Of a DNA stretch of 64,000 bases, positions 2,277 to 29,868 are shown one piece after another. Position numbers and translations under genes: made by a program. A model generated the notes under the pieces. The model saw nothing but the letters and a program-made list of their open reading frames with translations. It made no database searches and was not told the DNA's origin. The stretch is from contig JAQYVW010000005.1 in NCBI GenBank assembly GCA_030145325.1, positions 24,749-88,748 on the forward strand, given 5' to 3'. Numbering within the stretch: the stretch's first letter is position 1; each line of letters begins with the position of its first letter. Source of the stretch: Desulfurivibrionaceae bacterium (lineage in GTDB: Bacteria > Desulfobacterota > Desulfobulbia > Desulfobulbales > UBA5123).

Positions 2277-3134
2277 TTATTCTTCCAGCCGTGCCAATGC
2301 TTTTTTTGCGTGTGAAAATCCCTGGCTTGCCGCCTTGCGGTACAGCGTGAGGGCCTTCTCTAGATCTTCTTTAACGCCATGGCCGTTCTCGTAGAGTGTG
2401 CCGAGGCTGTATTGGGCACCGGCAGAGCCGTGTTCGGCGGCAGTGGTGTACCATTTTAAGGCTTTTTCCATGTCGTAGGTTATGCCGCTGCCGTTTTCGT
2501 GCATGGAGCCTAGATTAACTTGGGCGGCGAGATGTCCTTGCTCAGCGGCATTACGATACCACTTGATGGCCTCGCGTTCATCTTCATTGACCCCCAATCC
2601 CTTTTTGTACATAATACCAAGGTTAAATTGGCCGCGGGGGTCACCTTTTTCCGCAGCAAGGCGAAACTGTTTTACCGCCTTGTTGTAATCCTGTGCAACG
2701 TCAAGTCCGTTTTTGTACAGCAGGCCGAGATTGACGTAGGCTGGGGCAAAATCTTGTTTGGTGGCCATTTCGTACCATTGGATGGCCGTGGCGATATCTT
2801 TCTCAACCCCACATCCTTCCTCGTACATTCGTCCAAGGTTGTACTGGCCCATGGCATCGTTTTGTTGCGCTGCCATTTTGTACCATTGGATGGCCTCGTT
2901 GCAGTCCCGGTCTACGCCGCGTCCGTTTTTGTACATGGCTCCGAGATTTACCTGCCCGCCGGCATTATTCTGCTCGGCGGCCAAGCTATACCATCTGAGG
3001 GCTTCTGCTAGATCGGAAGTAACCCCTAACCCTTTTTCATACATAACTCCAAGCTTGAACTGGGCTTGTGGATCCCCGTCTTGCGCGGCTTTATTGTATG
3101 CTGCAAAGGTTTGTTGGTAATCCTTTCGGGACAT
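2277..3134 (-). CDS. Sel1-like repeat (SLR/TPR-family) protein
   Basis: About 7 tandem ~36-aa repeats of the form G.GV..D...A..WY..AA.QG.A.AQ..LG.MY..G. Confidence 0.85.
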   Translation of the reverse strand: MSRKDYQQTFAAYNKAAQDGDPQAQFKLGVMYEKGLGVTSDLAEALRWYSLAAEQNNAGGQVNLGAMYKNGRGVDRDCNEAIQWYKMAAQQNDAMGQYNLGRMYEEGCGVEKDIATAIQWYEMATKQDFAPAYVNLGLLYKNGLDVAQDYNKAVKQFRLAAEKGDPRGQFNLGIMYKKGLGVNEDEREAIKWYRNAAEQGHLAAQVNLGSMHENGSGITYDMEKALKWYTTAAEHGSAGAQYSLGTLYENGHGVKEDLEKALTLYRKAASQGFSHAKKALARLEE

Positions 3135-3248: not shown

Positions 3249-3425
3249 TTACTCCTCTTCGACAATAAAATCTTTCAATTTCTCATTTAAAGATTCAGGC
3301 CATGGCAGATCATGCAAGAAAGCGTTAGCCTCTTCCTTGGTTAAAGATTGCTTTATCTCTAGGGGGAGGCTGCGCAAAAAAGCCATTCTTTCCGAGTTAG
3401 GTTTGTTGTTTTCGTCGGTGGTCAT
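3249..3425 (-). CDS. hypothetical 58-aa protein, translationally coupled to the upstream gene
   Basis: My own translation gives MTTDENNKPNSERMAFLRSLPLEIKQSLTKEEANAFLHDLPWPESLNEKLKDFIVEEE. Its ATG overlaps the TGA of the 3422..4165 gene (ATGA). It is below the 60-aa cutoff of the ORF track. Confidence 0.4.
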   Translation of the reverse strand: MTTDENNKPNSERMAFLRSLPLEIKQSLTKEEANAFLHDLPWPESLNEKLKDFIVEEE

Positions 3426-4165
3426 TGTGGCTCCTTGTGTGATGATGGTTCTGGGCTCGTGGGCATTTGCGTAGCGTCGGTCATGGCGAGGCCGGGTTCG
3501 TTATTGTTGAGCATAGAGAGATATTTACATTCTGGATAATTGGAGCAGCCAAGGAAGTATTTGCCGATATTTTCACCTTGCTTCGCCTTAAGAAGCATCA
3601 GGGGCTCGCCACAACTGGGGCAGTCACCGTATTTGTTGGTGATTATCTTGACAGTGGGGTTTTCTGGTAATTCGATATTTTTGCTAAGAATGGCAATGAT
3701 GTCTTCAGGGTCATACTGTAACCGTGATTGCACCCTGGCGATGGGTAGACCTGCTGCGGTGGCGGCGTTGTCGATAAAATCGTCCGGCATGTCCTCAGCT
3801 TTGGCGGTTGCGGTCTTATTCTCAAGGTCAATGATTCCGGCGATGGAGAGATCCCCGGCGTTACAGAGAACAAAGGAAACCGTTGTGGCGTTAATTCTGG
3901 CCAGGGTTTTAACGGGGAGTTCTTTTCCTGGCTTCTGTTGTATCTGTATGATATCCGCCAGTCGTACCTTAACGAAGACAGTGTGCCTGTCGCCAAGAAG
4001 CGGTTCCAGGGTTTCGAGAAATGCCTTTTCCGGTGCCGAAAGAAGTGAGAAGTTTTTCTCGTAAGAAAGGGATAGGTCGTGGTTACCGGCGGTCGTTTTG
4101 ATGATGATGGCGACCAGGATGATGAAGATGATCAGGATGGAGACGAAGAGAACAGATGGAGGCAC
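3422..4165 (-). CDS. membrane-anchored DUF2726-like (nuclease-fold) protein with C-terminal topoisomerase-type C4 zinc finger
   Basis: N-terminal TM helix (VLFVSILIIFIILVAIII). Central region resembles DUF2726 (LLSAPEKAFLETLEPLL...VFVKVRLADII). C-terminal CPSCGEPL...LGCSNYPECKY zinc ribbon. Confidence 0.65.
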   Translation of the reverse strand: MPPSVLFVSILIIFIILVAIIIKTTAGNHDLSLSYEKNFSLLSAPEKAFLETLEPLLGDRHTVFVKVRLADIIQIQQKPGKELPVKTLARINATTVSFVLCNAGDLSIAGIIDLENKTATAKAEDMPDDFIDNAATAAGLPIARVQSRLQYDPEDIIAILSKNIELPENPTVKIITNKYGDCPSCGEPLMLLKAKQGENIGKYFLGCSNYPECKYLSMLNNNEPGLAMTDATQMPTSPEPSSHKEPQ

Positions 4166-4422: not shown

Positions 4423-4509
4423 GCCCGGATGGCGGAACTGGTAGACGCAAGGGACTTAAAATCCCTCGGTCGCATGACTGTGCGAGTTCGATTCTCGCTC
4501 CGGGCACCA
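4423..4509 (+). tRNA. tRNA-Leu (anticodon UAA)
   Basis: 87-nt cloverleaf. Acceptor GCCCGGA/TCCGGGC; anticodon stem AGGGA/TCCCT with loop CTTAAAA; long variable arm (class II). T-arm GCGAG-TTCGATT-CTCGC and encoded CCA. Near-identical layout to enterobacterial tRNA-Leu(UAA). Confidence 0.93.
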
Positions 4510-4520
4510 CGTATTATCAA

Positions 4521-4555
4521 TGGGTTAGCGAAATTTTAGCTAACCCATTTTTTTT
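4521..4555 (+). terminator. intrinsic terminator after tRNA-Leu
   Basis: 9-bp stem TGGGTTAGC/GCTAACCCA followed by T8. Confidence 0.75.
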
Positions 4556-4902
4556 GTGGTTTTGGGTAAGCACTATGTATGCATGGTTGCGAGAAAGAAA
4601 TAATCTTTTTGACTGAGCATGTTTGGGTAGGGTGATAGTCGTCTCGATACGAAGGAAGCAAGTCGAAGAGGTTGAATGGGATTTTAAAAAAAATTCTTCC
4701 AATACCTGCGGGGTGCAAATAAAACGAACCAGCAGCGAAGCGGCGAAAGAAACGGCACCCTGTGTCACTCGCCGTGTGGTCAAGCCACATTGCTGCCCGC
4801 CCGCTCTGTGGCGGATACCCTGCGTTCCTCAAAGTTGTCGGGATAAAAAAACTCGCCCGCCTATGGGCGGCCTCAAACAGTCGGAGTTTCCGCGCTGGTT
4901 TT

Positions 4903-4985
4903 GGGAGGACAGGAGACGTTGTTTAATTGTTGAAAAAAGAGTGTTTTTCATATTCAACAATTAAACAACGTCCCCTCTGTCCCTC
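4903..4985. repeat. palindromic MITE-like repeat, copy A (both arms, short loop)
   Basis: Left arm ..GAGACGTTGTTTAATTGTTGAA and right arm TTCAACAATTAAACAACGTCCCCTCTG are inverted complements around an ~18-nt loop. The right arm recurs at 11201-11225 and 13583-13607. Confidence 0.8.
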
Positions 4986-5017
4986 ACAGCTAGAAGGCTA
5001 CTTAATACATTAGGGAG

Positions 5018-5031
5018 GTATACGTAACAAA
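5018..5031. repeat. terminal inverted repeat, left
   Basis: GTATACGTAACAAA is the exact reverse complement of 6945-6958. Confidence 0.7.
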
Positions 5032-5148
5032 TCCTATTTTTTCTTTTTAAAACAACATGTTATTGTTGTGATATTATTGTATGGTTTTCTGCATTAGTCA
5101 ATATTTTTGTGTGTCGTCCTGACTAGAACTTTCACCCTACTTATCGGA

Positions 5149-6093
5149 TCAATGCCTCCTTCTTTGGCTTATAATACTTGCCGTTTTCTCCATCACTATA
5201 TCCATGGCGTTATAATAATCTCGCTGAGCCTTAACATTTGAGAGCTTGCAATAACGTTGGGTCGTTTTTATTCTGTTATGACCTAGTAGATCCTGGATTG
5301 TGACAAGATCAGCATCTGCGTTGAGCAATTTGGTTGCCATTGTATGGCGGAGTTGATGGCAGGAAACCGATACCGCACTTTGTTTAGAGTAATATTCAAC
5401 CCGTTTTTGGATACCACGGACAGAGATCGGCTTACCTTTGTAATTCCCTTTTTCAACTAGAAATACCAGTTGTTCTCTGGTGACAGGTCTTATTTGTAAA
5501 TATGCTGCCAGGGTTTCTGCAGCATCATTGCTAAGATATACCACTCTGTCCTTAGCCCCTTTCCCACTCCTTACCATTATTTGACTACGCCTGTAGTCAA
5601 TAGCTCCCAGGGTTAGATTTGCCACCTCTTCAACTCGAAGACCGCAACGCAGCATAAGCATGAACATGGCCATGTCCCGTGGTTTCGTAATGCTCCTGAG
5701 GAAAATGACAACATCACTATCACGAAGATGCCGAGGAAGTGGTTTGGGAAGACGAAGTGCCAGTTTTTTGATCACTGGGTTAGAGATCTGAAGACCCTCT
5801 TCATCTTTCAAATAATTATAAAATTTTCGGATGGCGACCAAGTGGCTATTAATAGTCTGCGGTGACAAGCTTTTTTCGAGAAGAAAATCTATATAACATT
5901 TCACATTCCTGGAAGTCACTGATTCAACAGGAACCGCAACCCACACGATGAATTTTTGTATTCTATGAAGATAATTCCTATCTGTTTGCACGGCTAAATC
6001 CACAGAGCTTTTCGAGCTGCGGCATAACTGAACTTTTTGTTTGCATAACCGTAGAAAAGATAATCCCCGTTTGTATTTCTTACCTTTAACCAT
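5149..6093 (-). CDS. tyrosine recombinase / site-specific integrase (apparently intact)
   Basis: Core-binding SAM-like region (SPQTINSHLVAIRKFYNYL). Catalytic Arg box LRCGLRVEE, HQLRHTMAT, LLGHNRIKTTQRY with the Tyr nucleophile. The start is uncertain because the ORF overlaps the upstream ORF by 100 nt. Confidence 0.85.
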   Translation of the reverse strand: MVKGKKYKRGLSFLRLCKQKVQLCRSSKSSVDLAVQTDRNYLHRIQKFIVWVAVPVESVTSRNVKCYIDFLLEKSLSPQTINSHLVAIRKFYNYLKDEEGLQISNPVIKKLALRLPKPLPRHLRDSDVVIFLRSITKPRDMAMFMLMLRCGLRVEEVANLTLGAIDYRRSQIMVRSGKGAKDRVVYLSNDAAETLAAYLQIRPVTREQLVFLVEKGNYKGKPISVRGIQKRVEYYSKQSAVSVSCHQLRHTMATKLLNADADLVTIQDLLGHNRIKTTQRYCKLSNVKAQRDYYNAMDIVMEKTASIISQRRRH

Positions 6094-6878
6094 TTCCGTA
6101 AGGCCCTCTCTGCATCTTCTGTAAAATGTACAACTCTGCCTTGGTAATTTTTCTCCCCAAGGTAAATCAGGATTTTTTGTTCCGGCAAAATAATGTCTGA
6201 AACTTTGACATTTAACAATTCGCCGATTCTCATCCCGGTTCGAAGCAATAACAGGATCATTGCCTGGTCACGGACATTGTTGACCACAACGAGTAATGCT
6301 TCAAGGTCTTCTGCAGGGATGGCCCGGGGCAGCAACTCAGGAAGTTTGAGTTGGATTTTTTTGTCGAGAATATCAGGTTCTAAAATTCTGTGGTCAACCA
6401 GGAAACGGAGAAAGGCATATATACCCTGTAGGTTTGTTTTTATTCCGCCAACCTTTAAACCACGGTTCTGATTATTTCCTATATATGCATAAATATGCTG
6501 CCGGGAGAGTTCTTCAATGCTGCTGATCCCGGACAGCATGAGAAATGATAGAAAAGAGATAATAACGCCGCCAGACTGCCTGATAGTGCTGGTTGCCAAA
6601 TTGTTTCTATATTTATGCTGTAGATAAGAAACTGCATGCTCAGCGCCAGGCAAGCTACTGTTTGATAACCTTTGGCTGAAATGGTTAAGCACCCGACGTT
6701 TTTCTGTTGGTGCCTGAGCTACAGGTAGCGCTGTGATCGGAGAAAAATATTGAGATGAAAAATTTGTTTGTGCTTGTTGATACTCGAAAAAGGTAGGGGG
6801 ATGTTGATGGGCAGACAAGAGCCCAAGATAGATTTGTTCACTTTGATGTGGAATTGCAGCTATTTTTTCCTCGGCCAT
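5994..6878 (-). CDS. tyrosine recombinase-like protein, C-terminally truncated (lacks HxxR / H / Y boxes)
   Basis: Core-binding region and Arg box (LLLRTGMRIGEL) are present. The ORF stops (..AAARKALWI*) before the HxLRH and Tyr motifs that the downstream paralogue retains. Confidence 0.6.
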   Translation of the reverse strand: MAEEKIAAIPHQSEQIYLGLLSAHQHPPTFFEYQQAQTNFSSQYFSPITALPVAQAPTEKRRVLNHFSQRLSNSSLPGAEHAVSYLQHKYRNNLATSTIRQSGGVIISFLSFLMLSGISSIEELSRQHIYAYIGNNQNRGLKVGGIKTNLQGIYAFLRFLVDHRILEPDILDKKIQLKLPELLPRAIPAEDLEALLVVVNNVRDQAMILLLLRTGMRIGELLNVKVSDIILPEQKILIYLGEKNYQGRVVHFTEDAERALRKWLKVRNTNGDYLFYGYANKKFSYAAARKALWI

Positions 6879-7085: not shown

Positions 7086-10000
7086 TCAATCTGACCCCTT
7101 TGGTTCTTCGCTTGCCAAGAGGGGGCTAGTCCGCAACGCCGCAGTGTCTTCGGCCTGTTCTGGCGACGGTGCCTGCAGAGGGCGCGTAAGTCGGCGGCAG
7201 CGAAGACTCTTCCGCGTCACCTCGATCTCCTCCGCCAATTCCGATCCGCTGTAAGCCAGCGAGGTCTCGTGGCGCGCATAGCGGCTGTCGCGACTTGCGC
7301 TGAACCAGTTGAACGAGCCAGCGCAGTAAATATCATCGTCAACGAGAATTAGTTTGCTGTGCACGCGAGCGACGAAGGCTGTTTCTATTCCGTCTTTCTG
7401 CAGCGCGTCCACCGCCGCTTGCAGCCGCAGTTTTTTTTCTGCTGCAAGGGTGGAATTCGGCGCCTCGGTGTTCCACTCCTGGTCGGTGTAGATGCTGACG
7501 CTAACGCCTCGTTTTACGGCGGCGCGCATCGCCTCTAGCGCTCCAATCTCCTTTATGCACCGCAATTGGAGCCAAGGGGTGACGATCTGTATCTCATGAA
7601 CGGCCTTGGCCAACGCGGTGAGCAGGTAGCTATCGTGCTCCTGGGCATCTCGTAGCTGACGTAAGTTCTTATGTAGCGGGGTGAGATCCTTGCGCTGCTG
7701 CGGCTCGAAATTCAATGCGTTGCTCGGCTTGTGACACAAATAGGTTAAGAGAAGCCCACGCGGTTTGGACTTCGGGGAAAGCTCGAGGACGTCCATGTCG
7801 CCGAAGACGAGGAAGCTGTCCTTGGCACGAGAGACGGCAACGTTTAGCATGCTAGGACTATTATCGATAAACTCGCCGTTGGCATGCTTAGAGTAGACGG
7901 GGGAAAAGATCACTACTGGCCGCTCGGCCCCCTGTAGGGAATGGACGGTGCCCACCGTCATTCCCTCCTTGCTACCGGCGATGATGCCTCGGGCTTGGCA
8001 GGACTGCAGGATCGCCTGCACTTGGCTGCCAAAGGGCGTGACCACGCCGACGATCTGGGCTAGCGTTTTTTCGTAACGCGTCTCTAACTCCGCCTTGTGT
8101 TCGACCAGCCAAGTGGCGATGATGTCTGCCTCCAGCAGATTCTGACGACTGCCGCCGTTGCTCCATTGACATATGCCGTCCACGTGCAGGTAGCCCATCG
8201 CCGGCAGCCCTACGCCCGCAGGACGCGAGCCGCGTTTGGGAAGGAGCTTGTTGCGATAGCACAGTTTATTGCAGTAGTCGACGATCTCGTCGAAGCAGCG
8301 TCGGTGCTCGTAGAGGAACATGCCACGGGTGAGGTCGGGGTCATAGTGATAGCGGCTGACGTTTTGCGCGATGCGCATGACACTGCCGGAGGCGGCTGCC
8401 TTACCCTGTTCGGCAAGCTGCGCGTACGCCTGCTTGGGGTCGGCGCTGCAGATGATCTTCGCACTGACCATGTTACCGATATCCACCTGTGCCGGAATCG
8501 ACCATATGGGCTCGATCTGTAGCGTGTCACCGATGACAAGCGACCTCTTGGCCAAGGCGAAGGAGGCACCCGCAACCTCTGGCAGCACCTGCCCGGCCTC
8601 ATCGACGATCAGCAGATCAATGAAATCATAGAGGTAGTCGGTAACGAATTCACCGTCATCAAAGCGCTTTACCTGCATCTCTGCCGGCAGCATAAAGAAG
8701 GTTGAAACAACGCAAGGCGTGAGCTTCATGCGTCTTCGCCAGCGCTTCTCCATCGTAACACGACCGCTCTTGCGCTTCTCCTTTTCCAATTCCGGCAGCA
8801 ACGCCTCCATCTCAAGCAGCCAGCGGCCTTCCCAATAGTGGGTCGTCAGCAAAAAAATTGGGAAGCGTATGGCGGTGTCGGCCAGTACGTCGCACTCCGC
8901 CAGCGAGAGAATCTCCGCCTGTTCCGAGATGCCCAACGGCTCCAGCGCCGCTCGCCAACGCTCCAACTGCGCCTGCTCTGCCTTAAGGACCGCCTCACCG
9001 CGTTGCACGATGTGCCGCTTTTCCCTCAGCATGGTGGCGAGCTGCTCGCGTCGAACCTGTGTCGCAGCTTCTATTTCGTCAACATTGTTCCCTCCGCGCA
9101 GCGCGGATTCGGCAGGAAAGTGCTCCTTGAGGAACAGCCTAGCAAGGCGTAGCCGCTTGTTGGCAACGGGTGGCAACCATGTGAACAGCGAGTAGAGAAT
9201 AGACTCCTTTGCAAGATAGGCCTCCCATCGCTCGACCACGGCGCCGAAGGCCTGATGCTGGGTCTCGATCTCTGCCTCCTGAAGCCGGCGTTCTGTCATG
9301 GCTGTGGCCGGATCCTCGCCGATCTCACGCTGAACCGCCTCGCGCGCAAGGACAAGTTTCTGCCAGACGTCATCAAGCGCGGTCAACTTGTCCAACTCGA
9401 CGCGGATCGCTTCTCGTAACGCCTTGACAGCATCGATGAGTGTTGGGTTTGCGATTTCGGGAAAAGCGGTTGCGGCTGCCTGGAGATAGGTACGCTTGGC
9501 GCGCTCGACGTATTCCGGTGACTCGACCTGTTCGAAGAAGGCGCGGGTCTGGTACTTGGTGGCGCTCTCGACTTCCTTGCCCTTGGCCGGGAAGTAGGCG
9601 CCGAAGCTCTGGATATCCGGCAGCCAACGACCGGCAAAGCAGCCTGAACCGATAGCAAAATCCTTGCCGAATGCGTCGATGATGTTCGTCACCGCCTGGT
9701 TGTTGGTGGACGCGGCCACGATAACGGGCGGCTCACCATTCTCATCCAGCGCCGCACGCGCCCAGAGTGAGGCAACCACTGAGAGCAGCATTGTAGTCTT
9801 GCCGGTACCCGGCGGGCCGTTGACGGCAAGGACGTCCCCATGGCGCCCCTCCAGCAGGTGAGACAGGGCGTCACGTTGAGCCTGCGCCAATGGAAAAGAG
9901 TCGCCGGCGTGACCCATACGGGCTGCGAAGGCTGCACTGGCCTGTAAGCAAGTCTCGGGCGGCGCTACCTGCTCGCTGGCGTAGCGTTCGAACAACGGGA

Positions 10001-10757
10001 CGGAGGGCACACTCTTGCGCATGTGGTCATAGAGGCCGAGGATGTGCTTACTAGCGCCTTTTACCGAGGCTCTTTTCTCGAGGTACCAGTAATTAGCCAG
10101 CTCAAAGTCGCCAGCAGTGGCCGGCCAGCCTTTGCCAACGAAATCGAACAGATCCACTGCATGGGCCAGACACCGCGACCAGAGCTCCTCTTCATTTAGC
10201 CCATGGGGGGAATCTTTGCCACCGAGGGCTGGAGTTTTGGTCAGGAAGGCATCCATATCCTCAAACGCACCGATCGTGAATGCACAACGGTCCATCGGCT
10301 CGAGTATGTCGCGCGGCATTATGGTCGTGGAGGTTGGCCGCAACCGACCGTCACGACCCAGTTCGGCCATGATCAAAAGCGGCGTCACCACATCGGGTAC
10401 ACCGGTACGTCGTCTCTGGGCGTGCTCGAGCTGCTGCAGGTAAACTATAGGACGAACGACAACCTCGATGGCATGCACATGCTCAGGCTCTTCGGCAAAC
10501 AGCGCGGCGATCTCGCTAATATCGATGTGTCCGACGCGCAGCTCATCCAGTGCCCTGCGCAGAAAGACCTTGGTCTCCCCCTCCCGCAACGCGCCGCTGC
10601 CGTGTTCGCTGTCTGCCAGGGAGTTTCGCCAGTAGGCAGCGTATGCAAGAAAGGTTTCATTCATTAGTCTTCTTCTTTTCCTCATGGTTATAGGCAACCG
10701 GGCATCTTGCCGGGAAGTGCCTTCAAGGGTAGTGGAGAGTTTGGTCTGGTTTGACAA
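7086..10757 (-). CDS. SF1 (Upf1/DNA2-like) helicase fused to a C-terminal PLD/HKD nuclease; type II Mokosh (MkoC)-like architecture
   Basis: Walker A NGPPGTGKTT, Walker B LIVDEAGQV, VGTVHSLQGAERPVVIFS and NVAVSRAK helicase motifs. One C-terminal HKD motif: HSKLILVDD...GSFNW. About 300 aa at the N-terminus have no call. The TTG start in the track is doubtful; ATG candidates are at 10685 and 10664. Confidence 0.8.
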   Translation of the reverse strand: MSNQTKLSTTLEGTSRQDARLPITMRKRRRLMNETFLAYAAYWRNSLADSEHGSGALREGETKVFLRRALDELRVGHIDISEIAALFAEEPEHVHAIEVVVRPIVYLQQLEHAQRRRTGVPDVVTPLLIMAELGRDGRLRPTSTTIMPRDILEPMDRCAFTIGAFEDMDAFLTKTPALGGKDSPHGLNEEELWSRCLAHAVDLFDFVGKGWPATAGDFELANYWYLEKRASVKGASKHILGLYDHMRKSVPSVPLFERYASEQVAPPETCLQASAAFAARMGHAGDSFPLAQAQRDALSHLLEGRHGDVLAVNGPPGTGKTTMLLSVVASLWARAALDENGEPPVIVAASTNNQAVTNIIDAFGKDFAIGSGCFAGRWLPDIQSFGAYFPAKGKEVESATKYQTRAFFEQVESPEYVERAKRTYLQAAATAFPEIANPTLIDAVKALREAIRVELDKLTALDDVWQKLVLAREAVQREIGEDPATAMTERRLQEAEIETQHQAFGAVVERWEAYLAKESILYSLFTWLPPVANKRLRLARLFLKEHFPAESALRGGNNVDEIEAATQVRREQLATMLREKRHIVQRGEAVLKAEQAQLERWRAALEPLGISEQAEILSLAECDVLADTAIRFPIFLLTTHYWEGRWLLEMEALLPELEKEKRKSGRVTMEKRWRRRMKLTPCVVSTFFMLPAEMQVKRFDDGEFVTDYLYDFIDLLIVDEAGQVLPEVAGASFALAKRSLVIGDTLQIEPIWSIPAQVDIGNMVSAKIICSADPKQAYAQLAEQGKAAASGSVMRIAQNVSRYHYDPDLTRGMFLYEHRRCFDEIVDYCNKLCYRNKLLPKRGSRPAGVGLPAMGYLHVDGICQWSNGGSRQNLLEADIIATWLVEHKAELETRYEKTLAQIVGVVTPFGSQVQAILQSCQARGIIAGSKEGMTVGTVHSLQGAERPVVIFSPVYSKHANGEFIDNSPSMLNVAVSRAKDSFLVFGDMDVLELSPKSKPRGLLLTYLCHKPSNALNFEPQQRKDLTPLHKNLRQLRDAQEHDSYLLTALAKAVHEIQIVTPWLQLRCIKEIGALEAMRAAVKRGVSVSIYTDQEWNTEAPNSTLAAEKKLRLQAAVDALQKDGIETAFVARVHSKLILVDDDIYCAGSFNWFSASRDSRYARHETSLAYSGSELAEEIEVTRKSLRCRRLTRPLQAPSPEQAEDTAALRTSPLLASEEPKGSD

Positions 10758-11166: not shown

Positions 11167-11228
11167 GTTCTTTTTTATATATCAACAAGATAGTCAATTA
11201 ACAATTAAACAACGTCCCCTCTGCCCCC
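11167..11228. repeat. MITE-like repeat, copy B (right half only)
   Basis: TTTTTTATATATCAACAAGATAGTCAATT..CAATTAAACAACGTCCCCTCTGCCCCC is nearly identical to 13547-13610. The left arm GGGGACGTTGTTTAATTG is absent. Confidence 0.8.
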
Positions 11229-11431: not shown

Positions 11432-11686
11432 ATGACCAAAAAAGATGTAAAGAAGTTATTAGCTGGGCTTGGTATAGCGAGTCTGCTTGGCGGCTGCTCG
11501 ATGATGGGCCATGATGGACAAGCTGGTGCCAGTGGCTGAGGAAGCAGCAAAACGGGTGCAGGTAGCACCCACACTGAGATCGAAAAGGCACCTGGCAGTG
11601 GTTGAAGTGGCACCACCGATGGTGCAGTTAGCACCCAGCAAGAAGAAAACAAGAAAAAACCCGGCAGTGGCTGAGGCGGGAGTTAA
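11432..11686 (+). CDS. predicted selenocysteine-containing precursor peptide (84 aa, three in-frame UGA)
   Basis: AAGGAG RBS 5 nt before the ATG. Reading TGA as U gives MTKKDVKKLLAGLGIASLLGGCSMMGHDGQAGASGUGSSKTGAGSTHTEIEKAPGSGUSGTTDGAVSTQQEENKKKPGSGUGGS. TGA codons at 11537, 11603 and 11672 are all in one frame, each after (G/A)-S-G encoded by GSCAGTGGYTGA. No other stop occurs until TAA at 11684. SECIS-like hairpins follow each TGA, and a radical SAM/SPASM gene lies 120 nt downstream. Confidence 0.6.
11554..11570 (+). promoter_or_regulatory. SECIS-like hairpin 1
   Basis: GGGTGC-AGGTA-GCACCC. The GGTGC stem starts at +19 from the T of TGA-1. The apical loop contains GGU. Confidence 0.45.
11621..11635 (+). 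promoter_or_regulatory. SECIS-like hairpin 2
   Basis: GGTGC-AGTTA-GCACC. The stem starts at +19 from the T of TGA-2, the same spacing as hairpin 1. Confidence 0.45.
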
Positions 11687-11691
11687 TCTGC

Positions 11692-11709
11692 AAAGTGCGG
11701 TCGCACTTT
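11692..11709 (+). promoter_or_regulatory. SECIS-like hairpin 3 (extends past the TAA stop)
   Basis: AAAGTGC-GGTC-GCACTTT begins at +21 from TGA-3. No T-run follows, so it is not a typical terminator. Confidence 0.4.
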
Positions 11710-11733
11710 ATGGTAATCGCCTCAGGCAAATGG

Positions 11734-11806: not shown

Positions 11807-13432
11807 ATGGCGACAAATCAGGAGCAGAGAGATCTAGAGCAAATTTTCCCCGTCTGCCGCATGATTGTTGGGGAACAGGTCTGGCAGGAGTTACTGAGTC
11901 TTTCCCCGAAAACATCCCCGGAAAATCTGCCTGCTTTCCTTGCCGATTTCGGCCAGGGGCAGGTCGTCCCTCCTTACCTTCCTGAACTGGCAAGGCTCGA
12001 AAGGACTTTTAATAAGGCCACCATGGCCCAGGCTGATTTCAGCCGCCCGGCAGAGCGGCCAGTTTTAAATCCAACCTTGGAAATACTGGAGCTATCCTGG
12101 GAAAATCTTGCGTCTTTGCTTTTTGAGGACGCGGCGACGGACATCGCCCGGCCCGAGAAAAGTCCTGAGTGGGTGGTGGTTTTCCGGGGGCCACAGTCCC
12201 AAAAAATGCGCTGCCGGCCAGCCACTGACCAGGAACTATTAGCCCTTAAAGTTGTTGCTGCCGACTTAAACCCGGATCAGGTGGCCCTGGAAAACCACGT
12301 ACCACTCGGGGTAATTGACCGAGCTCTCAGCCATGCTGATAGGATGGGGCTGACGCTGGCTCCAGAATCCAAAATACGGAGAAACCCTGCTTTCTTTACC
12401 GGTCGCAAGGCAATGGAACAATTCCAGATCGCCCCGGTGTTCACCCTCCAGTGGCATATCACCCAGAGCTGCGATCTCCATTGTCGCCATTGCTATGACC
12501 GGAGCAGCATGATGGAGCTGGAGCTGGATCAGGGGATGGCTATCCTGGACGACTTTAAATCATTCTGCCGGAGCCGTCATGTTGATGGACATATCTCCTT
12601 TACCGGCGGCAACCCTCTCCTCTACCCACACTTCAATACCCTATACCAGCAAGCGGCGGATCTTGGTTTTTCCCTGGGCATTCTTGGTAACCCGGCCGCC
12701 AAAGAGCGAATCGAAGAGATCATGGCCATCTCTGAGCCGGTTTTCTATCAGGTCAGCCTGGAGGGGCTCCGGGAGCAAAATGATTTCATTCGCGGCCCTG
12801 GCCATTTTGACCGGGTCATTGATTTTCTTTCGATCTTAAAAGATCTGGATCTTTACTCCATGGTCATGCTGACCCTGACCGAAGACAATCGGGATCAGGT
12901 TTTGCCATTGGCAGAGGAGCTGCGGAACAAGACCGACCTTTTCACTTTCAATCGCCTCTCCCTAACCGGGGAGGGCGCGCAATTGCAATCCACCCAACGA
13001 GACGGCTTTGAGTCTTTTTTACAAGAGTATATCCAGGCCGCGAAAACCAACCCGGTTATCAGCCTGAAAGACAATCTCCTCAATATCATTCGTTATCGAG
13101 AGGGCGGCGATCTCTTCGGCGGCTGTGCCGGTTTTGGTTGCGGGGCAGCCTTTAACTTTGTTTCCCTGCTGCCGGATGGCGAGGTTCATTCCTGCCGGAA
13201 ATTTCCTTCGCCAATCGGCAATATCTTTGAGCAATCCCTGGCGGCCATTTATGACGGCCCGCAGGCTGAGCAATATCGAAACGGCCCCCAAGCCTGTAAT
13301 GATTGTCCCATCCGGCCGGTCTGTGGCGGTTGTCTGGCGGTTGGTCACGGTATGGGTATTGATATCTTTACTGAGCAAGATCCTTACTGCTTCATGTCGC
13401 AGACAGAAAGAGAGGCTGGCTTGATGCGTTAA
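11807..13432 (+). CDS. radical SAM/SPASM-domain peptide maturase with ~200-aa N-terminal extension
   Basis: CX3CX2C cluster motif in QSCDLHCRHCYD. SPASM cysteines: CGAAFNFVSLLPDGEVHSC (CX12GX4C), CNDCPIRPVCGGC and DPYC. It is adjacent to the multi-UGA peptide. Confidence 0.88.
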   Translation: MATNQEQRDLEQIFPVCRMIVGEQVWQELLSLSPKTSPENLPAFLADFGQGQVVPPYLPELARLERTFNKATMAQADFSRPAERPVLNPTLEILELSWENLASLLFEDAATDIARPEKSPEWVVVFRGPQSQKMRCRPATDQELLALKVVAADLNPDQVALENHVPLGVIDRALSHADRMGLTLAPESKIRRNPAFFTGRKAMEQFQIAPVFTLQWHITQSCDLHCRHCYDRSSMMELELDQGMAILDDFKSFCRSRHVDGHISFTGGNPLLYPHFNTLYQQAADLGFSLGILGNPAAKERIEEIMAISEPVFYQVSLEGLREQNDFIRGPGHFDRVIDFLSILKDLDLYSMVMLTLTEDNRDQVLPLAEELRNKTDLFTFNRLSLTGEGAQLQSTQRDGFESFLQEYIQAAKTNPVISLKDNLLNIIRYREGGDLFGGCAGFGCGAAFNFVSLLPDGEVHSCRKFPSPIGNIFEQSLAAIYDGPQAEQYRNGPQACNDCPIRPVCGGCLAVGHGMGIDIFTEQDPYCFMSQTEREAGLMR

Positions 13433-13504
13433 AAGAAGTCGTGATGGTGGCGGTCGGCATCACTCTTCACGACCAAGGCGGGTGAAAATGAACAGCAAAC
13501 AACA

Positions 13505-13610
13505 ACGTGAGGGTTAGGGGACGTTGTTTAATTGTTTAAAGAAGAGTGTTTTTTTTATATATCAACAAGATAGTCAATTCAGCAATTAAACAACGTCCCC
13601 TCTGCCCCCC
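13505..13610. repeat. palindromic MITE-like repeat, copy C (full length)
   Basis: Left arm GGGGACGTTGTTTAATTG (13517-13534) and right arm CAATTAAACAACGTCCCC (13583-13600) are perfect inverted complements. The loop matches copy B. Confidence 0.8.
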
Positions 13611-13753
13611 GGTGCAACTTGACTGCGTTTGACGCCAGCCTCTGCCTGCCGCCTAAGCCCCTGCCAGGCCACGAAACCCCTTCTGGTGTTCCAATAACAT
13701 GTTGACTGCATGTGTCTTTTTTGCGAGCATGGCCATTGGAGGTATACTCAGGG

Positions 13754-15481: not shown

Positions 15482-16288
15482 ATGGCATTCAAAGAAAATT
15501 TGTTGCGCAAGATAGAAGTTGACCGGCTGGCCGGTCAGGTTGCCGCATCCTGTGGCATCATCCCCGGTGCACGGCACCGGGTTGCCAAGGAGCCCATGCG
15601 CCAGCTTCTGGAGTTGAGCACCTTCCAGTACCAACGTGAACGTGACCTGGATCTCTATGTTAAAGCGGCGGAAGGGGAGCGGCAGCTCATTCTGATTCTG
15701 GACAACGAATTGCCCATCTTCCATACCACCGTCCACGATGTGGTGGTGCGCAGAAGCCCGAGAACCATTGAAATGTGGAGTTTTCGCACCATCCGTAGAA
15801 TCTTGGTCGATTCCGACATCAAGGTGAGTGTGAACGGTCAGTCAGTGGCAACAGTGCGGAAAGATGTCCTTGCCCGCATCGACCTGAGCTATACGGATGC
15901 CGACATCCACGAGCTGGCCCAGGATGGTATGGCCTGGCTCGCTGACGGCAGGGCCGAAAAGGTTGAAGAGATCCTGACCCTCTTTGCCGCCTTGCTGGAT
16001 TTGGTGCCACCGCCAAAGGGGTTCGGCCTTGAGCAGACAGTGAGCTTCGGGGTTGCCGTCTCCGGGCCGGACGATGAGGCCTACTTCGGTCCCCTGGTCC
16101 TGTACCGGCCTGCTGGCAACACCCTGGCTTGGATCGACAAACCCATGGCCAAATCAGATCGGGAGCAGATGTGTTTTCTTCGCGATGCGGCCTCGGGAAG
16201 CGCCTCGGTGTCGGTACGGGGCGATGCTGTCTTTGGCAGGCTCGCAGAAGAAGTGCTGGCCCGACCCCAGCGGGAGGTGCCTGCTTAA
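15482..16288 (+). CDS. hypothetical protein
   Basis: 268-aa ORF with host-like composition. No motif recognised. Confidence 0.55.
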   Translation: MAFKENLLRKIEVDRLAGQVAASCGIIPGARHRVAKEPMRQLLELSTFQYQRERDLDLYVKAAEGERQLILILDNELPIFHTTVHDVVVRRSPRTIEMWSFRTIRRILVDSDIKVSVNGQSVATVRKDVLARIDLSYTDADIHELAQDGMAWLADGRAEKVEEILTLFAALLDLVPPPKGFGLEQTVSFGVAVSGPDDEAYFGPLVLYRPAGNTLAWIDKPMAKSDREQMCFLRDAASGSASVSVRGDAVFGRLAEEVLARPQREVPA

Positions 16289-16536
16289 TACCATTGACGC
16301 ATGTCTGCGCTGTTACCGTATTATTACGAGTAGGCCGACTTTTATTTGGTGCCAGGGCCTGGCTCACCTCGCCAACGACAATCCCATTGCTTTGAACCTC
16401 GTCAGTCAAATTAAGTGTTAGCCAGATGCGCTATGATTGGTTAGGTTTTCAGTGTATGCAAGTAGTCGGTACTCCAAGTTGGGTTTTGTTACAGACTTAT
16501 TTTGGATTCACCAATGTCAATCTCAGGGAGGTTTTT

Positions 16537-17553
16537 ATGTCAACCTGCGCTAAAACAATAAGTTGTCTTGCAATTTTAATACTGTTTTCGAGTATTTCTT
16601 TTACCGCCCAAGCAAACGAAGAAGAAACCAGCCTGTTTATGGCCGATGGGCAACTTAAATCTCATCCCATACGTATTTTTATTACCAAGGACATTACTGA
16701 AGATATGCACCCGCAATTAATCCTGCCTGGTAATCACTCTATTACTGAAGAAAAACAGAGCGAGAAAATCCCCACAAAACCAATGTATTTTGCTCGCAAC
16801 CAACAAAGTGAACAGGTGATAAACGGTAGCAAGGTAACCCTGACCGGGACGTTGTTACTGTTTGATATTGCTAACTATGATATCGATTGGTTTAAAGCTG
16901 TTACGCGGGTAACTCCTACTTTGACCTGGGAAATTGTTGATAGTACGGGGAAAAAGGTCAGACATTTTGCCATTGGTAACCGTGAAGTCTACCTTGGTAA
17001 TCCCATCCCAGGATTTTTGTGGCCGTTTTTCTTAACCTTTGCTTTGGTCTTTTTTATCGTTATTCTCTGCAAGATAGGGAATGCAAAAGTTATTGATTTG
17101 TTCTGTGATTATGATCGTCACCTGTCTTTATCCAGTACTCAGATTGCTTGTTGGACAATTACCATTGGCGGTGTTGTTGCGGGGTTTGGGTTTATGCGTT
17201 TAGAGGTTCCCCAGATACCTGCATCTTTGGTGGCCCTAATGGGGCTTTCGTTGGCAACCGGTGGTATAAGTTATCTGCACTCGAATAAGGTCAAGCAAGG
17301 TGATCTGCCCGATCTTCATGCCCATAAGCCCAATTTTTCAGATTTGTTGAAGGACTTTTCAAAAAACAAAGAGGGCGATTTGTCCTTAGCTCGTGCGCAA
17401 ATGGTGTTTTGGACAGGACTGACATTGATTTTATTTGTTGTTAAAAGTGTTTTAGACGTGCATTTATGGGAAGTTCCATGGGAAATGGTAGCCTTGATGG
17501 GCTTAAGCCAAGCGAGTTACTTGGCGCCCAAAATAGCTGCAAAATCCCAGTGA
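16537..17553 (+). CDS. hypothetical secreted/membrane protein with internally duplicated 2-TM module
   Basis: GGGAGG RBS before the ATG at 16537. Signal peptide MSTCAKTISCLAILILFSSISFTAQA. About 5 predicted TM helices. The repeated element ..W.T...EVP...VALMGLS occurs twice. The gene is AT-rich. Confidence 0.6.
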   Translation: MSTCAKTISCLAILILFSSISFTAQANEEETSLFMADGQLKSHPIRIFITKDITEDMHPQLILPGNHSITEEKQSEKIPTKPMYFARNQQSEQVINGSKVTLTGTLLLFDIANYDIDWFKAVTRVTPTLTWEIVDSTGKKVRHFAIGNREVYLGNPIPGFLWPFFLTFALVFFIVILCKIGNAKVIDLFCDYDRHLSLSSTQIACWTITIGGVVAGFGFMRLEVPQIPASLVALMGLSLATGGISYLHSNKVKQGDLPDLHAHKPNFSDLLKDFSKNKEGDLSLARAQMVFWTGLTLILFVVKSVLDVHLWEVPWEMVALMGLSQASYLAPKIAAKSQ

Positions 17554-28189: not shown

Positions 28190-28218
28190 GTGGCAAGGGA
28201 AGGGTGAGGCCGGAGGCG

Positions 28219-29868
28219 ATGATGGCGGGTCTTGAAAAAGAGCGAATAATGGTTGAGGAAACCTTGCTTTCGCCTGGGGCTGACTTCATTGCCAGGTTTA
28301 TGGCGGTCCGTAATCTCCATGAAATTTTGCGGGACCGTCCCCAGATGGCAACGGTGCGTACTGTTACCATTCTCGGTGCTCTTTTTGCTAACCCCAGTCT
28401 GACAGGTGAGCGACAGGTGTTGTTCCTTTTTCGGGAGGCAGCAGGTGCTTTGTTGTGCATTTTTGTCGGTGAAGTCGCCTCTTTGGGTGAGGTGGCCCTG
28501 CAGTGGTTGTATGGGGTGTTGCGGGAAGGTTCTGGGGCGGCTCAGCGAGCTGTTTGCGAGAGTTTGGCCGGTCTGCCCTTAGCCATCGCTGCCCCGTTCT
28601 CCTTGGCAGCTGTAACAGCGGAGCCGCCCCTGCTCTCCTGGCGGGATTTACCGGAAGCGACCATGGTCGATTTCGATGCTGAGATCTCTTTTGTCGGTCG
28701 TAGTTTGGTGGCACCTCTGCTGGGTGGGGCGGAACTGTTGGTGGTGAAGTTTGCTCGCCCCAATGACAGTTTGTCAGCGTTGGGTAGAGAGGCGCAGTGG
28801 CTCTCCTGGTTGCGGAGCAACAACGAAGTTCTTGATCCCTTGTTCGTGGTACCTCGGGCTCTTTGTCCTCTGGAAAGTTTTTTGTTCAGGCTTGATGATC
28901 TGCCCATTACCTTGCCGCCGCATCTCTCGTTACATCCCCTTGGTTTTGCCATCGCTTTTGTTGCTCCTGCAAATTACTATTCGTATCTAAACGAACCGGG
29001 GAACGGCCTGGATGATGAAAGTTTTTCTCCTCTGCTGGCCTGGAATGCTAAGTTGTTTGCTAAGCTGGCCGGGATGGGTATTATTCATGATGCCTTAATC
29101 CCGCTTTTTCATAATCGGGTGCAGCTGGATCGGCGTGAGGATGGCGGCTCCTATGACTGGGTTTTGGGCGGTCGCTTGGATCGGTGGCTGGCCTCTTGCG
29201 AACATCCTAATCTTGGCGTTGGTGGTCCGCGAGATTTTGAACATTTGGGCGTTATTGATGATCTTCGCCCTGGCGAACTTTATCGGCAATTGGGCGCGCA
29301 TTTTTTGAGTATGTTGTTGGTGGCGGCGAGCTATTTTCGCAAGAAGGAGCCAGTCTGCATGGGCCAGCATCTGGACGGGTCGCCGGTGGATGCCCGGCAC
29401 CTTTTTGATGCCTCTCTCCTTGAGCAGGTGATAGAGGATATGTATCGTGCCTATTATTTCGCTTTTACCGGCCAGCGAGCCCAGGCGCAACTGCCCTTTT
29501 CTCTGCCGCGTTTGACTTCTCGGATGATTGAGGAGATGGGGGTTGATCATCATATGGAGGAAGTGTTGCGTCTTGTTGATCAGAAGAAGATGAGCGATGA
29601 TGAATTTGTTGTTTTTCTTCGTCAGCGCGGCTTTTCGGCTCGTCGTTGCGCTGAGCTAAGGCGTGGTGATGGGGATGTTGTACTGGTCACCGGGCCTCAT
29701 CTCGGTGGTTTTAATCAGGCTATCTCCCTTCCTGAATTGGTTGAAGCCGTGGGCGGAATGGCAGCCATGTGCGTGTTGGGTCGTTATCAGGCTGAGAATG
29801 GTCTTGCGGAGAGCCCATTGGTGGCGGATGGGGAAGAGGCATTGGCTGATTGTCTACAGATGGGCTAG
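28219..29868 (+). CDS. hypothetical protein (~550 aa)
   Basis: Long ORF with host-like composition. GGAGG lies just upstream of the tandem ATGs at 28219/28222. No motif confidently recognised. Confidence 0.6.
   Translation: MMAGLEKERIMVEETLLSPGADFIARFMAVRNLHEILRDRPQMATVRTVTILGALFANPSLTGERQVLFLFREAAGALLCIFVGEVASLGEVALQWLYGVLREGSGAAQRAVCESLAGLPLAIAAPFSLAAVTAEPPLLSWRDLPEATMVDFDAEISFVGRSLVAPLLGGAELLVVKFARPNDSLSALGREAQWLSWLRSNNEVLDPLFVVPRALCPLESFLFRLDDLPITLPPHLSLHPLGFAIAFVAPANYYSYLNEPGNGLDDESFSPLLAWNAKLFAKLAGMGIIHDALIPLFHNRVQLDRREDGGSYDWVLGGRLDRWLASCEHPNLGVGGPRDFEHLGVIDDLRPGELYRQLGAHFLSMLLVAASYFRKKEPVCMGQHLDGSPVDARHLFDASLLEQVIEDMYRAYYFAFTGQRAQAQLPFSLPRLTSRMIEEMGVDHHMEEVLRLVDQKKMSDDEFVVFLRQRGFSARRCAELRRGDGDVVLVTGPHLGGFNQAISLPELVEAVGGMAAMCVLGRYQAENGLAESPLVADGEEALADCLQMG

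Follow-up and report, generated by a model that had tools for sequence, protein, structure and literature searches.

A typical sbtA-sbtM cassette in a Desulfurivibrionaceae genome: selenocysteine recoding, thio(seleno)oxazole family chemistry and a DUF2063-like fold predicted for the maturase N-terminus

What is made by a radical S-adenosylmethionine (SAM) enzyme when the gene just upstream of it is a short reading frame with three in-frame stop codons? The question is raised by a locus within a 64,000-nucleotide stretch of a Desulfurivibrionaceae bacterium genome (assembly GCA_030145325.1, contig JAQYVW010000005.1, positions 24,749 to 88,748; hereafter the window), where a radical SAM/SPASM gene, sbtM, follows a short gene, sbtA, for a putative selenocysteine (Sec) peptide. 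A first-pass annotation, made from the letters of the sequence, had read the pair as a peptide maturase and its Sec-containing target, and had likened it to the SbtA/SbtM system, reportedly predicted by Haft and Basu in 2011 (J Bacteriol 193:2745). The locus is a typical sbtA-sbtM cassette, of a known and biochemically characterised kind. Current annotation pipelines already name both families, and the locus by itself is ordinary; the interest that remains lies in the biological role of SbtA/SbtM, and in what is proposed below for the N-terminal domain of SbtM and the signal peptide of SbtA, which concerns the whole family and not one locus.

The sbtM product matched the NCBIfam equivalog model for SbtM (TIGR04082) with 727.3 bits against a cutoff of 350 (E = 1e-218), which places the sbtM/sbtA observation far beyond chance. 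The alignment ran from end to end, residues 13-529 covering model positions 1-516 of 516, while the second-best NCBIfam model, that of the ACGX-system radical SAM enzymes, reached 162.8 bits (cutoff 400) over residues 211-529 only. Pfam reported Radical_SAM (PF04055, residues 218-370, 45.9 bits) and SPASM (PF13186, residues 445-501), both above the gathering threshold, and the radical SAM core extends over residues ~211-395. Its CX3CX2C motif would be the site for the [4Fe-4S] cluster that cleaves SAM. In the SPASM domain the cysteines are C440, C445(X12)G458(X4)C463, C497X2C500X5C506X2C509 and C528; these eight can hold two auxiliary [4Fe-4S] clusters. All eleven radical SAM and SPASM cysteines are invariant among 25 homologues (51-67% identity). 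The first-pass annotation had thus called the exact open reading frame (ORF), its architecture and its motifs correctly, C440 being one further Cys, and the SbtM membership that it suggested is borne out; none of the outcomes that it had set as refuting its proposal was obtained.

Relatives of SbtM number thousands in the protein database. More than 100 share 50-67% identity and carry the source names SbtM or 'selenobiotic family (peptide radical SAM) maturase', most of them from Desulfobulbaceae, Desulfobacteraceae or Thermodesulfobacteriota metagenome-assembled genomes (MAGs); the nearest are 64-67% identical to the window protein. A scan of genome contigs with the SbtM protein gave a sole match, an unrelated Fusibacillus radical SAM protein (L001, 25% identity), and the plasmid collection contained no similar DNA.

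The sbtA gene lies 121 nt upstream of sbtM on the same strand (in line with the 120 nt of the first-pass annotation) and has a ribosome-binding site, GGAG, 7 nt upstream of its start. Read through its TGA codons it encodes MTKKDVKKLLAGLGIASLLGGCSMMGHDGQAGASG-U-GSSKTGAGSTHTEIEKAPGSG-U-SGTTDGAVSTQQEENKKKPGSG-U-GGS, with U for Sec. The Sec contexts (ASG-U-GS, GSG-U-SG and GSG-U-GG) fit the motif [GS][GS]-U/C-[GST]G. Conservation in the core of SbtA is limited to [GS][GS]U[GS]G and the spacers vary freely, the N-terminus being the sole strongly conserved part (consensus MDKKDLKKILAGLGIAGLL, with K7, K8, L10, A11, G12, A16 and L18 at 93-100%). TIGR04081, a 27-position N-terminal model with a cutoff of 30.5, covers this leader and nothing else. 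The 35-residue form that ends at the first TGA scored 32.6 bits and the read-through forms, with U written as C or X, 30.3-30.4 bits, values right at the cutoff that would agree with the SbtA family suggested for the peptide; relatives at other loci reached 38.8-49 bits.

Precursor genes were sought at 80 metagenome loci encoding SbtM relatives, by regular expression and then with a hidden Markov model (HMM) of the leader, and 74 loci, which had roughly 360 nt or more of sequence ahead of sbtM, were considered informative. An SbtA gene was found at 71 of these 74, nearly always directly upstream and on the same strand, with two such genes at two loci; the leader HMM added 20 genes to the regular-expression matches, which had been obtained at 52/81 loci. 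The short Sec/Cys ORF beside the maturase, on which the first-pass annotation had relied in the window, is therefore a feature of the family. The relatives carry 1-4 Sec in [GS][GS]-U-[GST]G, and a few lineages are all-Cys. At three loci with 1-3 kb on both sides of sbtM (L061, L071 and L077) no recognisable SbtA gene was found, and these maturases could be orphans or could act on a distant precursor. All-against-all clustering of the flanking ORFs revealed no other gene common to more than 6/81 loci, and no conserved transporter, protease or regulator beside sbtA-sbtM, indicating that the pair is a self-contained two-gene cassette. Those clusters that did recur across numerous loci consisted of shadow ORFs lying antisense within sbtM and were discarded as conserved neighbours.

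Evidence for recoding came from the comparison of UGA and Cys codons across SbtA genes. A hairpin of at least 5 bp, starting 8-29 nt downstream, was present at 116 of 130 distinct UGA sites, with a G(G/U)U-type loop in 102 of those 116, while the equivalent Cys-codon (TGC/TGT) sites showed a hairpin in 12/31 cases and a G(G/U)U-type loop in 3/31 (p = 8.7e-7 for the difference in minimum free energy, MFE). Aligned with MAFFT, with the UGA as anchor, 84 sites gave the selenocysteine insertion sequence (SECIS) consensus UGA-N(14-20)-GGUGC-AGGUA-GCACC, which the three window hairpins fit, their stems starting at +17, +18 and +20. In its 8-bp helix 78.9% of the cells were pairing, against 22-48% with the partner column slid by 1-3, and 125 cells were double changes (for instance, two pairs went from GC to AU in 35-38 sequences); 0/500 shuffles reached the observed pairing or covariation values. 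The last hairpin lies past the stop codon in nearly every SbtA gene, so that peptide conservation offers no explanation for the SECIS. This is also the case of hairpin 3 of the window, which lies in the 3' untranslated region past the TAA, with an outer stem (11671-11678 / 11717-11724) around it. Hairpin 2 is in the register of hairpin 1 and forms part of direct repeat D1; single-sequence MFE at site 2 favours a different short hairpin, and the family alignment backs the SECIS hairpin.

In the closest relative (L002, with an SbtM 66% identical), the frame and the three UGA positions align with sbtA, the gaps come in whole codons, and the differences downstream of the first UGA fall mostly on third positions (15, vs 9 and 4). 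Together these comparisons show sbtA to be read through three UGA codons as selenocysteine, as far as nucleotide and codon patterns can tell, helped by a SECIS hairpin 17-20 nt downstream of each. The first-pass claim that the TGA codons are Sec codons is accordingly upheld by covarying hairpins that accompany UGA and not Cys codons. At its gathering thresholds Rfam reported tRNA alone and no model matching the SECIS hairpins.

The hairpin also appears to shape the peptide. The Cys motifs of the all-Cys variants stand 6-7 residues apart (TSCSGKTSCSGKTSCGG), while Sec sites are always at least 12 codons apart, and the peptide motif G-A-G-S-T that follows most Sec sites is the translated SECIS stem-loop (GGUGCAGGUAGCACC), indicating that in multi-Sec precursors the SECIS sets both how far apart the Sec sites lie and part of the peptide sequence. 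One Cys codon (L010:2771) retains a SECIS-like hairpin, suggesting a recent Sec-to-Cys switch. The comparison of Sec and Cys sites offers a clean natural example of hairpin constraint on multi-Sec peptides.

The in vitro chemistry of the family was described by Lewis et al. 2021 (Biochemistry 60:3347, PMID 34730336) for an SbtM (WP_083768621) that is a Geobacter-type homologue of the window enzyme. As summarised in later accounts (PMC9204691, PMC11002830, PMC13638132), this enzyme makes a 5-thio(seleno)oxazole out of -Gly-Cys/Sec- by removing four hydrogens (-4 Da), deuterium from the Cys beta-carbon passing to 5'-deoxyadenosine and the Cys amide proton being lost. These accounts describe the product as an aromatic oxazole by nuclear magnetic resonance, absorbing at 304 nm (+9 nm with Se), and one of them reports that it is still alkylated by iodoacetamide (PMC9204691). 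In the working model that they outline, a first SAM-dependent oxidation gives a thio- or selenoaldehyde, which the preceding carbonyl turns into an oxazoline, and a second one yields the 5-thio(seleno)oxazole. The NCBIfam names for TIGR04082 and TIGR04081 now carry this chemistry. The first-pass annotation had expected thioether, carbon-carbon or selenoether crosslinks (-2 Da per module), which the published -4 Da oxazole contradicts (PMC9204691). It had also taken both chemistry and role as not established; the first has been published since 2021, and the second still stands in the senior author's account, where the final product and the biological function of the SbtA system are given as unknown (PMC9204691).

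The ~200-residue N-terminal domain is specific to the SbtM family. An AlphaFold2 (AF2) model built on 19 homologues (predicted local distance difference test, pLDDT, 87.5; predicted template modelling score, pTM, 0.81) consists of a five-helix bundle followed by a winged-helix module of three strands and three helices. The first-ranked match of this model in a Foldseek search of the PDB was 3DEE, over the whole chain (E 8.6e-7, probability 1.00, TM 0.63/0.65, 205 columns); 3DEE is NGO1945, the DUF2063 'PME1' partner of a Neisseria MNIO enzyme. The second and third ranks corresponded to TglI (8HI7_A and 8HCI_A, E 1e-4), the partner of the MNIO enzyme TglH, and all remaining PDB matches had E > 0.09. 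The kinship was revealed by fold comparison alone: a profile search of the PDB sequences with the domain alignment gave nothing, even at E = 10, and among the 19 members Pfam produced sub-threshold matches to DUF2063 in 4/19 and to NGO1945_C (PF22106) in 1/19 (E 0.0054). From the modelled fold, residues 1-200 are predicted to be a precursor-binding domain that docks SbtA. No paper connecting SbtM with DUF2063 was found in the searchable literature. For the full-length protein (AF2 model with pLDDT 86.3 and pTM 0.85), the nearest solved structures were CteB, SuiB, SkfB and TigE, maturases of peptides synthesised ribosomally and modified post-translationally (RiPPs), and then the anaerobic sulfatase maturase (anSME) and PqqE, as expected from the shared catalytic core.

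The conserved N-terminus of SbtA has the n-region/h-region layout of a Sec-type (general secretory) signal peptide, a character that is near-universal in the family. In the window, a K-rich n-region (K3, K4, K7, K8) is followed by the h-region LLAGLGIASLL and the lipobox L-G-G-C22. A PS51257-type lipoprotein rule (early K/R, uncharged h-region, [LIVMFWSTAG]2-[LIVMFYSTAGCQ]-[AGS]-C, with the Cys at 15-35) was satisfied by this peptide and by 30/61 distinct SbtA peptides, suggesting that the window SbtA may be exported and lipid-anchored at Cys22. Export by the general Sec pathway with lipoprotein processing is the simplest reading, given that a dedicated exporter is absent from the locus. The peptides that fail the rule mostly have an Ala-rich cleavage-like site or their first Sec at the lipobox position. 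The latter arrangement was seen in 17/61 distinct SbtA without a lipobox Cys (for example LTFAASS-U and VAFGGSG-U), at loci that include L007, L020, L023, L026, L029, L035, L037, L038, L040, L045, L050, L053, L055, L060 and L075. The Gly/Ser surroundings of Sec may account for this trivially, or it may point to signal-peptidase II-type processing on selenocysteine; more speculatively, some SbtA variants could be lipidated on selenium.

The reading that we favour, with a probability of roughly 0.85, is that SbtA is read with Sec, presumably docked by a PME1-type domain, converted by SbtM to a selenooxazole peptide, probably exported and lipidated, and perhaps, by analogy, used to chelate soft metals. 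It starts from the family membership, recoding signals, cassette structure and domain architecture found in the window and continues as follows. The 84-residue Gly/Ser-rich precursor with its three -Ser-Gly-Sec- sites would be docked by residues 1-200 of SbtM. By analogy with the Geobacter homologue, the CX3CX2C cluster would cleave SAM and the resulting radical would take a hydrogen from the beta-carbon of Sec. This would leave a selenoaldehyde-like intermediate, on which the Gly before Sec would close an oxazoline ring by attack through its carbonyl oxygen, and a second SAM-dependent oxidation would aromatise the ring, the two SPASM clusters being thought to bind the chalcogen and relay electrons. 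Each site would become a 5-selenooxazole with an exocyclic selenol(ate), at a cost of two SAM and -4 Da per site, or -12 Da per peptide. The modified SbtA would then probably leave by the general Sec pathway, be lipidated at Cys22 and be anchored in the cell envelope, where its three selenolate-oxazole groups might act as chelators of soft metal ions, Cu(I) for instance, as bufferins and oxazolins do.

Several observations weigh against this reading. The TIGR04081 score of the window SbtA is right on the cutoff, and its SbtM is only ~50% identical to most family members. Folded as single sequences, the three hairpins of the window do not stand out significantly from shuffled sequence (z = -1.0 to -1.8), so that the case for recoding is a family comparison; selA, selB, selD and tRNA-Sec were not found within the window, so that the Sec competence of the host is assumed. 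The window SbtM scored 14.3 bits on DUF2063 (PF09836) against a threshold of 27.2, and the relationship is therefore one of fold. The lipobox is a pattern match only, and Cys22, which stands in a Gly-Cys context, could alternatively be a fourth modification site. A metal-homeostasis gene was not found nearby, and export, lipidation and metal binding are suggested by pattern and analogy.

The alternative that survives best keeps the same chemistry and gives the product another use: it would be a redox-active part of the envelope, such as a selenol-based antioxidant or an electron shuttle, would store or carry selenium, or would serve as an antimicrobial ('selenobiotic', after Haft). The role of all SbtA products is given as unknown in the senior author's account (PMC9204691), conserved genes for metal resistance or transport do not accompany the cassette, its hosts are anaerobic sulfate and metal reducers with a prominent redox chemistry in their envelopes, and selenols outdo thiols as redox catalysts. 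On the other hand, the immunity, ABC-exporter and leader-protease genes expected of a secreted antibiotic were not found at the loci, a lipid anchor would make a diffusible toxin less likely, and the characterised signal-peptide-bearing 5-thiooxazole peptides are so far all copper binders. We regard another function of this sort as possible, if doubtful.

A maturase of the sactipeptide or ranthipeptide type, joining Sec to an acceptor by thioether, selenoether or carbon-carbon crosslinks at -2 Da per module, would account for the shared radical SAM/SPASM architecture and for the nearest structures (CteB 5WHY/5WGG, SuiB 5V1S and SkfB 6EFN). The corresponding NCBIfam models (PapB, StsB, AlbA and SkfB) gave 45-60 bits with cutoffs of 300-850, against 727 for SbtM, the SbtA core has no conserved acceptor residue, and a family member is described as losing 4 Da within Gly-Cys/Sec to give an aromatic oxazole that iodoacetamide can alkylate (PMC9204691). 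Crosslinking is thus very unlikely here.

Even less probable is that the TGA codons are real stops, with a 35-residue signal-peptide-like product and untranslated modules downstream. ORF callers do end at the first TGA, the short form passes the TIGR04081 cutoff and Sec machinery is not visible within the window. Against this, dozens of loci keep the same frame, UGA positions and [GS]GU[GS] context, some lineages having Cys codons at these positions; covarying SECIS follow the UGA and not the Cys codons; whole-codon indels and dominant third-position changes separate sbtA from its closest relative; and SbtA is treated as a multi-Sec precursor in the literature (PMC9204691).

An anSME or another non-peptide SPASM enzyme (heme d1/NirJ, AhbD or PqqE-like) beside a coincidental SbtA, a placement that the first-pass annotation had named as fatal to its own proposal, shares a related mechanism (oxidation of the Cys beta-carbon to a thioaldehyde) and a similar core (anSME 4K36, TM 0.66 on target; PqqE 6C8V, TM 0.70), and was rejected as scarcely credible on family placement: NirJ, AhbD and mycofactocin models gave 57-69 bits (cutoffs 265-515; 45-81 bits, well under the cutoffs, when sactipeptide, ranthipeptide and PqqE-type models are included), no anSME model is present in the 25 top NCBIfam families, those enzymes lack the 200-residue N-domain, no sulfatase or heme-biosynthesis gene was found adjacent to sbtM, and SbtA adjoins sbtM in 71/74 loci.

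The coordinates of the cassette and of related features are collected in Table 1.

Table 1. Features of the sbtA-sbtM cassette in the window, with all-Cys SbtA variants at other loci
Feature	Position	Strand	Basis and details
sbtA, 84-codon precursor gene	11432-11686	+	three in-frame TGA codons, TAA stop 11684-11686; TIGR04081
SbtA leader, putative lipoprotein-type signal peptide (residues 1-21), lipobox Cys22 codon 11495-11497	11432-11497	+	PROSITE PS51257-type rule
Sec codon 1 (UGA 11537-11539) and SECIS hairpin 1	11537-11570	+	stem 11554-11559 / 11565-11570 (GGGUGC/GCACCC), loop AGGUA
Sec codon 2 (UGA 11603-11605) and SECIS hairpin 2	11603-11635	+	stem 11621-11625 / 11631-11635 (GGUGC/GCACC), loop AGUUA
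Sec codon 3 (UGA 11672-11674) and SECIS hairpin 3	11672-11724	+	stem 11692-11698 / 11703-11709 (AAAGUGC/GCACUUU), loop GGUC
sbtM, thio(seleno)oxazole-forming radical SAM/SPASM maturase gene	11807-13432	+	ATG start, 541 aa; TIGR04082 match
SbtM N-terminal domain, residues 1 to ~200	11807-12406	+	AF2 model, Foldseek; DUF2063/PME1-like fold (predicted)
CX3CX2C motif C222-D-L-H-C226-R-H-C229	12470-12493	+	motif, Pfam, homologue alignment
SPASM domain	13124-13390	+	PF13186 38.9 bits; TIGR04085 39.1 bits (cutoff 27); invariant columns
Upstream repeat copy, loop and right arm only	11171-11228	+	near-identical 58-nt direct repeat with 13551-13609
Full palindromic repeat copy, 70 nt past sbtM stop	13503-13614	+	inverted repeat I1
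All-Cys SbtA variants	L008:747-971, L027:2702-2890, L047:327-515, L073:1288-1614, L079:1322-		

In the window, sbtA-sbtM is located between the gene of MkoC and a hybrid histidine kinase gene. MkoC (7086-10757, minus strand) is a 1223-residue protein of superfamily 1 (SF1) helicase plus phospholipase D (PLD) nuclease that matches over its full length the PADLOC model PDLC03924 (1363 bits, positions 1-1133 of 1136) for the one-gene Mokosh type II defence against phages, with a GC content of 57-61% against ~52-54% in the surroundings. Farther upstream, a tRNA-Leu(taa) gene (4423-4509) precedes a pair of minus-strand ORFs for tyrosine recombinases, one complete (5149-6093) and one with a truncated catalytic domain (5994-6878), in a region (4423-6878) of 40-42% GC. 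The recombinases and MkoC look like an integrated island at a tRNA gene, with sbtA-sbtM, of host-like GC, at its inner edge. Just upstream of the tRNA gene, two minus-strand ORFs encode a seven-repeat Sel1/TPR protein (2277-3134) and a DUF2726 protein with a topoisomerase zinc ribbon (3422-4165), both of kinds frequent in defence or mobile contexts.

The palindromic repeat around the cassette (arms AGGGGACGTTGTTTAATTG / CAATTAAACAACGTCCCCT) occurs in two complete copies, the second at 4920-4984, and one half copy. It was not found in any of 81 other loci. The 58-nt direct repeats were considered as marks of a mobile cassette and rejected; a REP-like (repetitive extragenic palindromic) intergenic repeat is the simpler reading, since the palindrome is genome-specific, has a third copy and is absent from the other loci. 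The palindrome may belong to the REP or MITE (miniature inverted-repeat transposable element) type of element, or may be a terminator. Promoter and terminator scans around sbtA-sbtM gave nothing above shuffle expectation, and a sulfatase was not found in the neighbourhood.

Other genes of the window include two ORFs downstream of the histidine kinase (15482-16288, 268 residues, and 16426-17553, 375 residues, both on the plus strand) without Pfam, NCBIfam or PADLOC matches; the second looks membrane-associated by eye, and the region has 43-48% GC. A plus-strand ORF at 28204-29868 (554 residues) matched the NCBIfam 'SidJ-related pseudokinase' model NF033874 with 560 bits (cutoff 300) and nothing in Pfam, a family unusual for a free-living Desulfobulbaceae genome. 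The window ProS is 85-89% identical to Desulfobulbaceae MAG proteins.

Compared with the characterised SbtM/SbtA, the window pair has the same ~200-residue N-domain, radical SAM core and SPASM domain, the same two-gene layout, and the same precursor design, with a KK-LAG-hydrophobic N-terminus and Sec in a Gly/Ser motif followed by a SECIS. Its Sec sites are SG-U, where the literature quotes 'GGUG', and otherwise there is no categorical difference; its SbtA leader is divergent within the family, at the HMM cutoff, and the cassette lies beside an integrase/Mokosh island, bracketed by a genome-specific repeat.

CteB (5WHY), SuiB (5V1S) and SkfB (6EFN), the best whole-chain neighbours of SbtM (Foldseek E 1e-13 to 1e-15), share with it an N-terminal peptide-binding domain joined to a radical SAM/SPASM core, at 17-18% sequence identity, but they install thioether or carbon-carbon crosslinks. 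Their N-domains are PqqD-type RiPP recognition elements (RREs) of ~100 residues, not a 200-residue unit of DUF2063 and winged helix. The anSME 4K36 has the same scaffold with two auxiliary clusters and is thought to share the first step, hydrogen abstraction from the Cys beta-carbon to give a thioaldehyde. It hydrolyses the thioaldehyde to formylglycine in sulfatases, whereas in SbtM the backbone carbonyl captures it and a second oxidation follows, and anSME is devoid of the PME1-like N-terminal domain.

The closest parallel in product is found in the bufferins, oxazolins, fontiphorin and gonophorin, metallophores with 5-thiooxazoles that an MNIO (DUF692) enzyme produces together with a DUF2063/PME1 partner (PMC11626156, PMC12668002). 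Bufferin precursors have Sec signal peptides, depend on MNIO and DUF2063 proteins, contain 5-thiooxazoles and are copper binders of the periplasm. DUF2063-type RREs accompany signal-peptide precursors. It is because MNIO and DUF2063 pairs install the same 5-thiooxazole that the fold parallel in SbtM deserves attention. As in those systems, the SbtM heterocycle is a 5-chalcogen-oxazole built from Cys/Sec and the preceding carbonyl, SbtA has a putative Sec-type signal peptide in place of a classical leader, and the recognition module has the same predicted fold, with 3DEE and TglI as top matches.

The differences lie in the catalyst and in the setting. The MNIO enzyme is an O2-dependent TIM barrel with multinuclear iron, whereas the SbtM catalytic domain is an unrelated, O2-independent radical SAM/SPASM unit, which would give strict anaerobes a route to the same ring; its partner domain is fused instead of separate, and selenium replaces sulfur. 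The SbtA/SbtM loci also have no DUF2282-type folded core, DoxX or sigma-factor genes, and their hosts are strict anaerobes. We tentatively propose, as an idea that may well prove wrong, that SbtA/SbtM corresponds, in anaerobes and with selenium, to the MNIO/DUF2063 'bufferin' systems, with a PME1-type domain gained by fusion and an envelope-anchored poly-selenolate chelator of soft metals as its product. If so, a radical SAM enzyme of sulfate- and metal-reducing bacteria would have acquired by fusion the same precursor-binding domain that O2-dependent MNIO enzymes use. The PME1-like N-domain and the signal-peptide SbtA would link the radical SAM and MNIO routes to chalcogen-oxazole peptides, and this link would make the role of the selenooxazole peptide approachable through export, lipidation and soft-metal binding.

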